NCBI RefSeq assembly: GCF_016903815.1
Contig: NZ_CP069974.1
Reading direction: 5' to 3' (one strand)
Source: Escherichia coli
Lineage (GTDB): Bacteria > Pseudomonadota > Gammaproteobacteria > Enterobacterales > Enterobacteriaceae
DNA length: 64,000 bases
Positions 7,901-10,900 of the stretch are shown in pieces (within the stretch, counting starts at the first letter, position 1; every line of letters starts with the position of its first letter). A program made the position numbers.

Positions 7901-10900
7901 GGGATCCCGTCTTAAGCCAGTCGTGGCGCGGGCTGAGGGCTGTTTTACGGTTTTTGGGAGAAATGGGGTAATGCCAGGGCAAAGATGATCGCAAGGAAAG
8001 GAGAAAAATACACAGAGAGGGGAGTTGCGCTACGTGAATTCTGGCTAGGTACACCCCTGTAACCCTGCCAGTTTTCACGCAACGCAATGTGGTGGCTGAT
8101 TACTGTCAGTTGAAATGACGGCTGGCATCCTGATGCTGACTTAATATACGAATAATAACAATTTCAGTATCAGTCTGCAGAAAATAAACCATATGCCGTT
8201 CAACGGGTAGTGCGAATGTGTATTCCCCAGTTCAGGAGGGGGAGTACCGATATTATGATTACTCATAACCTGAAAAATGTCGGATATCTGATTAATATAT
8301 TTATCAGCCTACTCTTCACCGAAATGGTGGTACCCGTAATGCTAGATATCCTCCAGATCCTGACTGGCTTTAGGTGTGAGTTTAACGGTTTTCACCGGAA
8401 GCCCTCGCGCCAGCTTTCACTTTTTTCAGAAACGCATTTTTTTCCCACGACACAGGTTCACCGCTGCTCAAGCCTTCTGCCAGTAAATCCCGCAGGACAC
8501 CTGGAGACGTGACTCTGCCTGTTTCTCTCGAAGGAGACGAAGTGACTCGCGGATTACCTCACTCTGTGTACGATAATCACCTGATTCTATGAGAGATTCT
8601 ATGTACTCCCAGAGTTCATCTCCGAGAGCAACTGTCATTGTTCTGGCCATATCAAGCCTCGTGATTGTAAGTTTAAATTTTACATGCAGTTTATTCGATA
8701 CTCAAAGGTGCTTCCAGTACAGAACATTTGGGAGAATTGGGGTAATGCCTGGAACAGACAGATACGGAGAAAAACCCTGCAGATAACCTTATACGACAAC
8801 TGAAGGTGTCTGATGCCATATTCTTAGCTACTTCTCTGTCTTCAGGCGGCTTAGTCACAACATAAGACCGATGCATAATAAGCATATTTTTTCATGTTAT
8901 GGTCTTGTTCATGCATGAACTATTATCTATTCAGTCACTTTTAAAGTTTTATATCATACTGCATATGATATATATCATCTCCTATATTCAGACTAAAAAT
9001 ATTATGACGATGGTCAAATGAATTTAGTGAAAACGCTACCTAAAACAATATGCTTATGATATAACTTATCAAGAATATGCGACAATCTTCTTGAAAGGTT
9101 ACGGAGAAGAGTCAGATAATGAAGTGTTATAACTCATTCAGCTTTTTTATGTTCTCTTTATAGTAAAACCAGGAGATTAAGATGAATCAGAAGTGGAAGA
9201 CGTTAATTATTTCATTATTAACACCATCAAGTATTATATCAGGGATTGCGTTGATAGTTCTCTGGGGATATTTCAGTCGCCTGGGCCGACTAGATATTTT
9301 CTTTGATGTAATGAATATTAAAAGCATCTTGGTATTGGTTTGTTGTGCAACTATACTATCATTGGCTATGATAGTATTTATCTTTTTTATAACCTCTTTT
9401 TTTATACCCGTAGTTATTCCTCAGGATATAAATAATCTTCCTGCTTACAATAAGATTCAGGGTAATTTTTTATCTGTGATGATGTTATCTGGCATGTTCC
9501 CCATGGCCTTTATATATGTGTTATACTGTGCATTTGATTTTGATCAGAATGTTAAAGATAACTCTGGCTGGTTATCTATTGCAAGTATGGGTGTACTGAT
9601 AGCTGTTATTTTAGCCATAGTAAATAAGAGGTATCTTGAATATGACTTATCGTTTAAAAACAATAGAATGAAACTGTTGAGACGTGTTCAGATCTATCTT
9701 GTCATTCCGTTGTCTATTGCTTTACTGGTGCATCTTCAGTTAATTCCTCTGGAGATAGTTTTTAGTAATATTGCAACTTCAGATAAGAGTGTTAATTTCA
9801 AAGTGATAGCTGAACTGGCTTTCATGTCATATTTTATCTTTCTTCTGACAATGCTTCCTGGAGTCATTTATCTGAAAATGAATCCACAGCATAAATTTTC
9901 AAAAAGAATTAGCTATTCATTTATCGCATCCTTGATGTTATTATTAATAATATCGACTCAAATAACCGTGTTACCAGTGATTTTTACCCATTCCGTTATT
10001 AAGCTATCAGGTATAAGTGACTTCAAAATACATAGCTACATTATTAAAACAAGTGAATATCCTGAAGAGTTTTTTTCCAATGCAGCATGGGATAAAAAAA
10101 ATATAAAACCGGGGGATTATTACTCTGTGCAGGCTGTTTCTATGTTTACGACAAACCAGTTTATTCTCCTTTGTCCTAAGGATATTATAAAGTTTTATCG
10201 GGAAAGCTGGAAGTTCGAGTTGCTTAATGTAGACTTCGATATAAATACCAGGAAGAAACTCCAGGAAGAAGCTGCATATTGCGTACCAATTTCTGCAATA
10301 TCTGTAAAACGATGGGATATGCCTCTTCAGGGCTCGAAACCCTCAAGTTAGAAGGCAACTAGGGCGACTGTATTCTGTGACGAAATGAATGGCTGGCTCA
10401 CTATAATAATGAGCGAACCCATCAGGGAAAAATGTGCAATGGGCGGACGCCAATGGAAACGTTACTCGATGGAAAACGCATCTGGGCCGAGAAAAATTTA
10501 AGCCAGATGTAATCTGACAGATACCTGTATAAATAACCGATAACTGTCAGATCAGGTCTGAGCTAATACATTTCAATAAAGGTACTTGCTCGCGCTCTGT
10601 CATTTTCTGAAACTCTTCATGCTGCATTTCGATTTTCCTTCTAAGATCATAACTCGCATACCTGTTCTTTTTATGTATATCTATATCTATTTTTGTGACG
10701 AGTTCAAACCACAATGTTCGCGCTCCCGGTGATGCTGCCAACTTACTGATTTAGTGTATGATGGTGTTTTTGAGGTGCTCCAGTGGCTTCTGTTTCTATC
10801 AGCTGTCCCTCCTGTTCAGCTACTGACGGGGTGGTGCGTAACGGCAAAAGCACCGCCGGACATCAGCGCTATCTCTGCTCTCACTGCCGTAAAACATGGC

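Follow-up and report, generated by a model that had tools for sequence, protein, structure and literature searches.

The 64,000-nucleotide stretch of Escherichia coli DNA analyzed here (contig NZ_CP069974.1 of assembly GCF_016903815.1; hereafter, the window) is part of an enterobacterial multi-resistance plasmid of the IncF type. Our subject is an open reading frame (ORF) on its plus strand, 9182..10351, whose product is named "hypothetical protein" in RefSeq (WP_001072355.1; UniRef name B1VCJ4_ECOLX). The ORF begins with ATG at 9182, its stop codon ends at 10351, and it encodes 389 amino acids, as the initial annotation of this stretch had claimed. It is far more AT-rich than its surroundings, with a GC content of 0.338 compared with 0.502 for the whole window, and has an AT-rich upstream region of its own (8880-9181, GC 0.288), so that both compositional statements of that annotation hold. 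The upstream region contains a Shine-Dalgarno sequence, AGGAG (9171..9175, plus strand), 5-9 nucleotides before the ATG, and a site resembling a sigma-70 promoter (9091..9120, plus strand; TTGAAA-18 nt-GATAAT), which was found by a consensus scan and matches the consensus at 10 of 12 positions. The latter is a consensus match only and is treated here as a putative promoter; the AT-rich stretch around the ORF contains 12 promoter-like sites compared with 10.0 expected, and thus shows no enrichment. Scans of window positions 7700-10900 for Rfam families, tRNAs, and tandem repeats returned nothing relevant.

The ORF is a real protein-coding gene rather than a chance reading frame, because about 1,200 E. 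coli records contain it undamaged, it evolves under purifying selection, and relatives down to approximately 20% identity share its length and architecture. It was found in 1,250 of 5,426 complete E. coli genomes (23%), where 1,258 of 1,266 copies are plasmid-borne, and is very common on IncF plasmids of the type found in extraintestinal pathogenic E. coli (ExPEC) and ST131. Two alleles occur in E. coli: one nearly 100% identical to the window copy (414 records) and a commoner one of about 93% identity (839 records). The reading frame is essentially full-length in 1,204 of 1,257 records. The Nei-Gojobori dN/dS ratio between the two alleles is 0.29 overall, 0.31 in the part with transmembrane (TM) segments, and 0.24 in the C-terminal domain. 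Beyond E. coli, the 2-kb stretch around the gene is covered to at least 80% in 1,139 PLSDB plasmids from Escherichia, Klebsiella, Salmonella, Shigella, and other genera. The protein clusters concerned have thousands of members, all of them named "hypothetical" or "uncharacterised".

The layout proposed initially, hydrophobic helices followed by a soluble C-terminal region, is borne out by the Kyte-Doolittle profile, which delineates seven hydrophobic segments (residues ~9-29, 47-75, 95-117, 129-147, 170-190, 207-230, and 243-266) and a tail of about 120 residues; the helices of the AlphaFold model agree. In the AlphaFold2 prediction made with the family alignment (pLDDT 92.5, pTM 0.88), seven long helices precede an alpha/beta domain at the C-terminus, and this domain modelled alone reached a pLDDT of 87.5. 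In an alignment of 63 diverse family sequences, from which all conservation and loop-charge figures given here derive, the predicted cytoplasmic segments have on average 2.6, 2.6, 5.8, and 3.0 Lys and Arg residues and the predicted periplasmic loops 1.4, 1.0, and 1.0. The odd number of TM segments, the positive-inside charge bias across the 63 sequences, and a conserved pair of cysteines are consistent with one topology: the protein is predicted to reside in the inner membrane, with seven TM helices, a cytoplasmic N-terminus, and a C-terminal domain of about 120 residues in the periplasm. The placement of this domain (codons 267-389, 9980..10348 of the plus strand) follows from the count of seven helices together with an N-terminus inside.

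The distribution of conserved residues fits the same picture. Loop 1, predicted to be periplasmic (codons 30-46, plus strand 9269..9319, with the signature W28-x-YF-xxx-GR-x-DxF), is the most conserved region, at a mean column information of 2.30 bits; the C-terminal domain, which contains the GIxD...H, W303, and LxCP motifs, is likewise highly conserved in its core, and the cytoplasmic loops vary most (0.9-1.1 bits). Only P226, C331, and C367 are invariant, and G277, W303, L329, and P332 are nearly so; prolines and polar residues are conserved inside the TM helices as well (S72, P176, Q186, P189, P226, and S258). Since the periplasm is oxidizing, the invariant cysteine pair is compatible with a disulfide, and the C-terminal domain is probably held by a C331-C367 bond. 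Because the conservation lies on the periplasmic side and includes no invariant residue that could be a catalytic candidate, the sequence pattern points to a protein that acts by binding or blocking rather than by catalysis.

A phmmer search over 1.84 billion representative proteins revealed 112 relatives (about 110 clusters at 50% identity), mainly from Enterobacterales; about 50 of them are full-length, with 19-33% identity and equal length and layout. Word-indexed searches added only further members from Enterobacterales, one Vibrio entry, and one Pseudomonas member. The family is thus distributed in gamma-proteobacteria, chiefly in Enterobacterales, and the protein from the window is its most abundant member. 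The description of this protein as an orphan in the initial annotation therefore stands in that no named family includes it, and fails in that it has about 110 clusters of relatives. Neither Pfam, NCBIfam, nor PHROGs contains a family matching the protein at E <= 1, the Pfam scan of 63 diverse members produced scattered single-member noise only, no homologue has a precomputed Pfam domain belonging to it, and no named remote relative emerged when 5.8 billion proteins were searched with the profile. Sequence searches of the Protein Data Bank (PDB), with the protein by phmmer and with the profile by hmmsearch, yielded only matches due to hydrophobic composition, and the comparison with the PDB by Foldseek, in which neither the full model nor the separately modelled domain had a meaningful match, resulted in low-coverage overlaps with helix bundles (best E 0.51, TM-score at most 0.29). 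The family is uncharacterized, and its predicted fold is one without a relative among solved structures.

A match to a characterized transporter or housekeeping family had been named beforehand as the observation that refutes the initial proposal of an orphan, possibly phage-excluding, membrane protein; hidden Markov model (HMM), profile, and fold searches gave no such match. In particular, the protein does not belong to the secondary transporters or the permeases of ABC systems as judged by HMMs, internal repeats, and fold, and the hhalign comparison of TM1-3 with TM4-7 gave a probability of 4%, that is, no internal repeat of the transporter type.

The gene lies beside a plasmid replicon. The RepFIB repA gene (5734-6711, plus strand; Pfam Rep3_N/Rep3_C) is followed by a tyrosine recombinase gene, int (6996-7736, minus strand; Pfam Phage_integrase), both also named so in RefSeq. 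Blastn comparison of the window with pHK02-1, a plasmid carrying the sister allele, revealed two blocks of different divergence: the RepFIB-int backbone (5734-7978), which is 98% identical, and an AT-rich single-gene cassette (8727..10374, plus strand; GC 0.29-0.34), which is 91.7% identical and which comprises the upstream region, the ORF, and 23 nucleotides of 3' flank, the unit common to plasmids with the sister allele. Between the two blocks the window contains a 774-bp insert (7979-8752), absent from the sister-allele plasmids and flanked by 26-nucleotide direct repeats of 92% identity (7953-7978 and 8727-8752); it contains an antitoxin gene of the ParD type (Pfam ParD_antitoxin, E 1e-8), truncated and on the minus strand (8468-8650).

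The RepFIB-int backbone was counted in 2,859 E. coli genomes, compared with 1,197 for the 7-TM gene, which stands beside the replicon in about 42% of the genomes with this backbone; the site next to int is thus a cargo slot of variable content. Elsewhere among E. coli plasmids (loci L036-L038) the same slot is occupied by mig-14 with genes for a short-chain dehydrogenase/reductase (SDR) family oxidoreductase and an omptin, by an alpha/beta-hydrolase gene and ompP, or by PapB/HilD-like regulator genes together with the genes of the longus type IV pilus. In two of these three plasmids a short pseudogene fragment of a kinase or regulator adjoins int.

Immediately downstream of the cassette lie the C-terminal remnant of an IS481-family transposase and the corresponding insertion sequence (IS) end (10381..10560, plus strand), which are called a pseudogene in RefSeq on identical plasmid copies and which are neighbors outside the unit of the gene. 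The remnant had been noted initially with a start at 10365; its existence is upheld, and its family is now specified, whereas the coordinate is not, as the frame ending ...WLAHYNNERTHQGKMCNGRTPMETLLDGKRIWAEKNLSQM* is open only over 10381-10512 and is preceded by a TGA codon at 10378-10380. Intact, full-length chromosomal IS481 copies align from about 10385 (query position 34) to about 10560, Pfam finds a weak rve_3 match in the last ~20 residues of the remnant (E 0.01), and an imperfect hairpin formed by an inverted repeat marks the IS481 end (10504-10560).

The initial annotation explained this neighborhood by transport of the gene to its site as cargo of the downstream IS481-family element, and the only 34 nucleotides that separate the remnant from the stop codon would agree with such an origin. 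However, the commoner allele keeps the RepFIB-int left flank and has on its right an IS3 remnant and a PapB-like gene instead of IS481; the IS481 homology starts about 10 nucleotides beyond the end of the shared cassette; the remnant is a C-terminal fragment directed away from the gene; and IS481 was found near none of the diverged homologues. No intact composite or ISCR-like IS481 unit carrying the gene was seen in other genomes. We consider this origin very improbable: only the ~100% allele has the IS481 remnant beside it, and the cargo model lacks support because the cassette is a separate block, the right flank of the sister allele is IS3, and the slot cargo is variable. As a separate observation, scars of mobile elements of four different kinds are located within 3 kb of the 7-TM gene.

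The genomic contexts of the relatives were then compared. At all 19 loci examined, the GC content of the gene is 6-25 points below that of the flanking 5 kb on either side, and no conserved partner gene was observed in about 18 distinct contexts. The family travels as a solitary AT-rich cassette, with a putative promoter of its own, between accessory-cargo slots of plasmids, integrative and conjugative elements (ICEs), satellites, and prophages. In a P2-like prophage of Pantoea (member P0107, locus L029), the gene is located between the tail-fibre-assembly and tail-sheath genes on the opposite strand. The slot between genes G and FI of phage P2 is known as "moron position 2", the Z/fun hotspot (PMC3573123; bioRxiv 10.1101/2024.10.15.618418), and the GenBank note on its occupant in P2, fun(Z), reads "cloned gene blocks growth of T5". 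A second variable slot of the Pantoea prophage, flanked by baseplate gene V and tail gene S, contains an inserted Septu system (12894-14634 of L029; PtuA E 4e-92, PtuB E 2e-64). In lambda-like prophages, namely in Siccibacter (L022) and at the one locus found in a scan of IMG/VR (L032), the gene lies just beyond gpJ and the tail fibre gene, again on the opposite strand.

We tentatively propose that the 7-TM protein is an envelope-level exclusion factor that blocks the passage of a competitor through the inner membrane, most likely the injection of a phage genome, and we hold this function to be possible, if still somewhat doubtful. The protein would be constitutively present in the inner membrane, and its conserved periplasmic face, formed by loop 1 and the C-terminal domain, would block a step that the incoming competitor needs for crossing this membrane. 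The likeliest target would be phage genome injection, as is the case with P22 SieA, T4 Imm, and HK97 gp15, and the protection would extend to the host as well as to the mobile element that carries the gene. Both the protective role and the periplasmic-face mechanism are what we infer from the combined data. Such a function fits best because the gene has no partner, the protein has neither a cytoplasmic domain nor an invariant candidate catalytic residue, the conservation is on the periplasmic face, and relatives are found beside tail-fibre genes of prophages.

Comparison with the most similar systems already described reveals similarities of organization rather than of sequence. SieA of phage P22 resembles the 7-TM family in that a single constitutively expressed gene of a mobile element encodes an integral inner-membrane protein with no partner; sieA is located on the opposite strand beside the phage injection and tailspike genes, and the members of its family, although less than 30% identical, keep their topology. 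At the same time, SieA proteins have only 162-164 amino acids and three (or four) TM segments, without a periplasmic domain (PMC10883804), and possess a conserved motif, FxRYPxEAxxFNK, for which a cytoplasmic location is predicted. Only P22-like prophages carry SieA, between genes 16 and 9, whereas the 7-TM family occurs on plasmids, ICEs, satellites, and P2- and lambda-like prophages. Homology to SieA was rejected by the difference in size, number of TM segments, and context, and by the comparison of the 7-TM family profile with P22 SieA by hhalign (probability 0.7%).

The occupant of the P2 slot, fun(Z), is likewise AT-rich (GC 0.33, compared with 0.46 in the flanking P2 DNA), single, and non-essential, with a conversion or exclusion function, and its slot and opposite-strand orientation are identical to those of the Pantoea member, but not to those of the plasmid copy in the window. 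It differs in encoding a soluble protein of 528 amino acids (L042, 2676-4262), with no TM segment and with a Walker-A-like motif identified by eye (GEKGTGKT); homology was rejected here as well (hhalign probability 0.1%). The exclusion of T5 by Fun(Z) has long been known, and its mechanism is apparently uncharacterized. The third system, SNIPE or PD-lambda-1, is similar to the proposed role of the 7-TM protein as a single-gene direct defence that is constitutive at the inner membrane and exploits the site of genome entry (PMC13190303). It is a membrane-bound nuclease of quite different architecture (PMC13190303), whereas the 7-TM protein has neither a cytoplasmic domain nor a nuclease motif nor a match in PADLOC. 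Among the single-gene membrane morons and exclusion determinants of mobile elements, the 7-TM gene is an unrelated variant.

Other relatives are found in the neighborhood of defence genes. Type I restriction-modification (R-M) systems directly adjoin them in Serratia fonticola, where McrB is also close by, and in Xenorhabdus siamensis; in Serratia silvae an unannotated trio with sizes equal to those of a type I R-M trio stands beside the gene. In Enterobacter chuandaensis (L017) the gene lies between an integrase gene and a Rosmer-like pair (11252-12888), which consists of an RmrA-type protein of 380 amino acids with helix-turn-helix and peptidase domains and a DUF4411 protein of 166 amino acids. 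The gene of a Lelliottia plasmid stands beside an integrase gene, 1.6 kb from HEC-08 (E 3e-158), and that of a P4-like satellite of Dickeya (with integrase, AlpA, and primase) occupies the end of the cargo, beside a gene for a protein of 747 amino acids that matches the candidate defence family PDC-S31. Further relatives are carried by ICEs and CP4-type islands, with TraU/TraG_N, ArdA and DUF932, ArdC/CbtA/TraI_2, or YfjJ/AlpA nearby. The resemblance to single-gene phage-exclusion determinants suggested in the initial annotation is in agreement with these contexts (prophage moron slots, satellite cargo, R-M and other defence neighbors), which strengthen the still tentative link to phage exclusion.

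Several apparent neighbors of the gene did not withstand examination. In the Lelliottia plasmid, a downstream ORF of 157 amino acids and a Tlde1_dom fragment, considered as partners, are spurious, since they overlap OrfB of an IS3 element. The upstream ORFs of 240-290 amino acids in L022, L023, and L025, considered as a shared partner, are mutually unrelated. The link with a LemA-TPM operon in Erwinia was rejected too, the gene being an AT-rich insertion (GC 0.44 versus 0.59) located 23 bp past the LemA-TPM pair.

The defence-associated contexts would also agree with an abortive-infection effector, a latent protein that, on sensing infection, would disrupt the membrane or form pores in it and so depolarize or kill the cell. 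TM proteins of defence systems are commonly seen as suicide effectors (Rousset et al. 2022, PMC9122126), and the prolines and polar residues conserved in the TM helices could be read in the same way. On the other hand, the gene has no partner sensor gene and the protein no cytoplasmic domain, and because its cytoplasmic loops are the least conserved parts, sensing of an intracellular infection cue is hard to explain. The putative promoter is apparently constitutive, on very successful plasmids and with no antitoxin-like neighbor, and PADLOC gave no match to known TM effectors. This explanation thus appears rather improbable.

A different kind of protection is suggested by two neighbors that encode toxins. 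At an ICE-like locus with ArdC, CbtA, and TraI_2 (L033), a relative is situated 367 bp from a gene for a ColM-domain bacteriocin of 269 amino acids, and a PAAR-RES toxin gene is located about 4 kb away from the Pseudomonas relative. The 7-TM protein might protect the cell against agents acting in the periplasm, as an orphan immunity or resistance factor directed at bacteriocins, toxins of contact-dependent inhibition (CDI) or of type VI secretion systems (T6SS), or host antimicrobial peptides, its periplasmic face shielding the target or the translocation route. This would be in line with the conservation of the periplasmic face and with the invariant cysteine pair, features common to the immunity proteins Cmi, BmiB, and PmiB. 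It would further agree with the likeness to PmiA and BmiA, integral-membrane immunity proteins that are poorly conserved, are located on mobile elements, and also occur as orphans (PMC5277000), and with the presence of the envelope-protection genes mig-14 and omptin in the RepFIB-int slot of ColV-type plasmids.

Nevertheless, at the sole bacteriocin-linked locus the ColM gene already has a convergent partner encoding a YebF-domain protein of 113 amino acids (L033, 5454-6634), which is the known architecture of Cmi immunity (PMC5277000). The possibility that the 7-TM gene is the cognate ColM immunity gene in L033 was therefore ruled out, and it is regarded as neighboring cargo. The remaining ~17 contexts contain no adjacent toxin gene or remnant, and the position beside tail-fibre genes in two types of prophage is more typical of exclusion of one phage by another. 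Known immunity proteins also have 100-180 amino acids compared with about 390 here. Immunity proteins of the ColM type in particular share with the 7-TM protein the inner-membrane location, the conserved periplasmic parts, the cysteine pair (in PmiB and BmiB), low conservation, and occurrence as mobile cargo and as orphans. They differ in having ~100-140 amino acids and 1-4 TM segments and in being usually toxin-linked, whereas the 7-TM protein is solitary; we found no YebF or other match to this group, and ColM linkage in only one of about 18 contexts. On balance, protection against such periplasm-acting agents seems an unlikely function.

The nature of the cargo slots brings in one more explanation, a factor of lysogenic conversion or fitness, that is, an envelope-modifying enzyme, transporter, or sensor that would change the cell surface or physiology and be kept for colonization or virulence, not for contests between mobile elements. 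Genes of this sort are carried by both the P2 G/FI (PMC3573123 for P2) and the RepFIB-int slots; neaT and gtrC, AT-rich morons for multi-pass membrane proteins, are textbook cases, and gtrC of P22 adjoins the tailspike gene. The high prevalence of the 7-TM gene on ExPEC/ST131-type IncF plasmids would be expected of such a factor as well. The gene is similar to the envelope-modifying morons encoding NeaT (of the AT3 family) and GtrC in being an AT-rich, opposite-strand, single gene for a membrane protein near tail genes, and neaT itself occupies "moron position 2" of P2 (PMC3573123). However, the protein lacks a PF01757 match and matches, by sequence or fold, none of the AT3, GT-C, Wzy, MFS, or other enzyme and transporter families. 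It has no internal repeat of the transporter type and no invariant polar or charged residue suited to catalysis, and partner genes of the GtrA/GtrB type are absent. A conversion function is accordingly judged improbable.

Returning to envelope-level exclusion, a number of observations weigh against it. The cargo slots serve mixed purposes, as the RepFIB-int slot elsewhere contains mig-14, SDR oxidoreductase, omptin, and pilus genes, and the P2 G/FI slot can hold the gene for an O-antigen acyltransferase, neaT (PMC3573123). Inner-membrane exclusion proteins described so far are far shorter, with 162 amino acids and three TM segments in P22 SieA (PMC10883804), and the 7-TM family is not related to SieA. 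None of the 5,027 defence-protein models of PADLOC-DB v2.0.0 (2023) matched the protein at E <= 1, a tblastn search of 50,697 deposited phage genomes detected no homologue, and a search of the literature by accession found no paper mentioning either of the two protein accessions searched. The dN/dS ratios give no sign of the diversification seen in an arms race. The chromosomal sites of the relatives in Enterobacter cloacae (L023), Erwinia persicina (L015), and Pseudomonas (L034) have no hallmark of a mobile element or of defence. Finally, the adjacency of some relatives to defence genes (type I R-M, Rosmer-like, HEC-08, and PDC-S31) was counted without a formal background control. With these points taken into account, the broader claim that the 7-TM protein is the founding member of a previously unrecognized family of single-gene inner-membrane exclusion proteins, having a new fold, exchanged among plasmids, ICEs, satellites, and prophages, and blocking entry of phage genomes or other invaders from the periplasmic side, is put forward with more reserve than the exclusion function itself.

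Several loci of relatives merit separate mention. Two contigs of one Xenorhabdus hominickii genome (L019 and L020) have the same ORF layout over a 21-kb ICE segment extending from TraG_N to the 7-TM gene, which suggests that the element is duplicated or multicopy. In Mixta sp. (L025, 9971-11208) two separate ORFs of 175 and 229 amino acids make up the family member, which is apparently a frameshifted pseudogene. The sizes and order of the ORFs around a member of 413 amino acids on a contig labelled "MAG: Collinsella sp." (L021) resemble those at an E. coli chromosomal locus that adjoins a gentisate-pathway operon (L002); the contig is probably mis-binned Enterobacteriaceae DNA.

The remainder of the window is occupied largely by resistance and mobility genes. 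Genes of a type I R-M system, hsdS (422-1693, minus strand) and hsdM (1690-3252, minus strand; TIGR00497, E 3e-194), are located about 6 kb from the 7-TM gene, across the RepFIB replicon, and no ORF of the size of hsdR was seen between 3252 and 5734. On the other side, the IS481 remnant is directly followed by IS1 (10729-11496) and then by tetR(B)/tetA(B) of a Tn10 remnant (11577-13487). The region 15470-53921 is a typical IS26-mosaic resistance region. Seven ORFs of 240 amino acids start at 15470, 20727, 23462, 37267, 39744, 42527, and 53199, and the one tested (15470) encodes an IS6-family transposase of the IS26 type. Genes for a Tn3-family transposase (26080-28629) and an ISKra4-family transposase (31518-32912), as well as chrA (47895-49100), were identified too. 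An unannotated pair of plus-strand genes at 34760-36946 encodes proteins of 389 and 333 amino acids with no match in NCBIfam or PADLOC, and with sub-threshold Pfam hints of HEPN_RES_NTD1 (E 2e-4) and GNAT (E 9e-4). The first of the two (34760-35929), which was considered as a relative because of its equal length, is unrelated to the 7-TM protein.

In clinical E. coli, resistance and virulence genes travel mainly on IncF plasmids with RepFIB replicons. If the 7-TM protein is indeed an exclusion factor, about one quarter of sequenced E. coli, including those with ST131-type IncF plasmids, would carry an unannotated phage-resistance gene by the RepFIB replicon. Phage host range would then depend in part on a plasmid gene, which matters for phage therapy directed at ST131-type strains, and the gene would provide a selective reason other than antibiotics for keeping IncF plasmids; a new membrane-protein fold and mechanism would be added to the small set of inner-membrane exclusion proteins. 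Should the protein have no role in exclusion, it would still represent a well-defined and highly prevalent family with a confident structural model.

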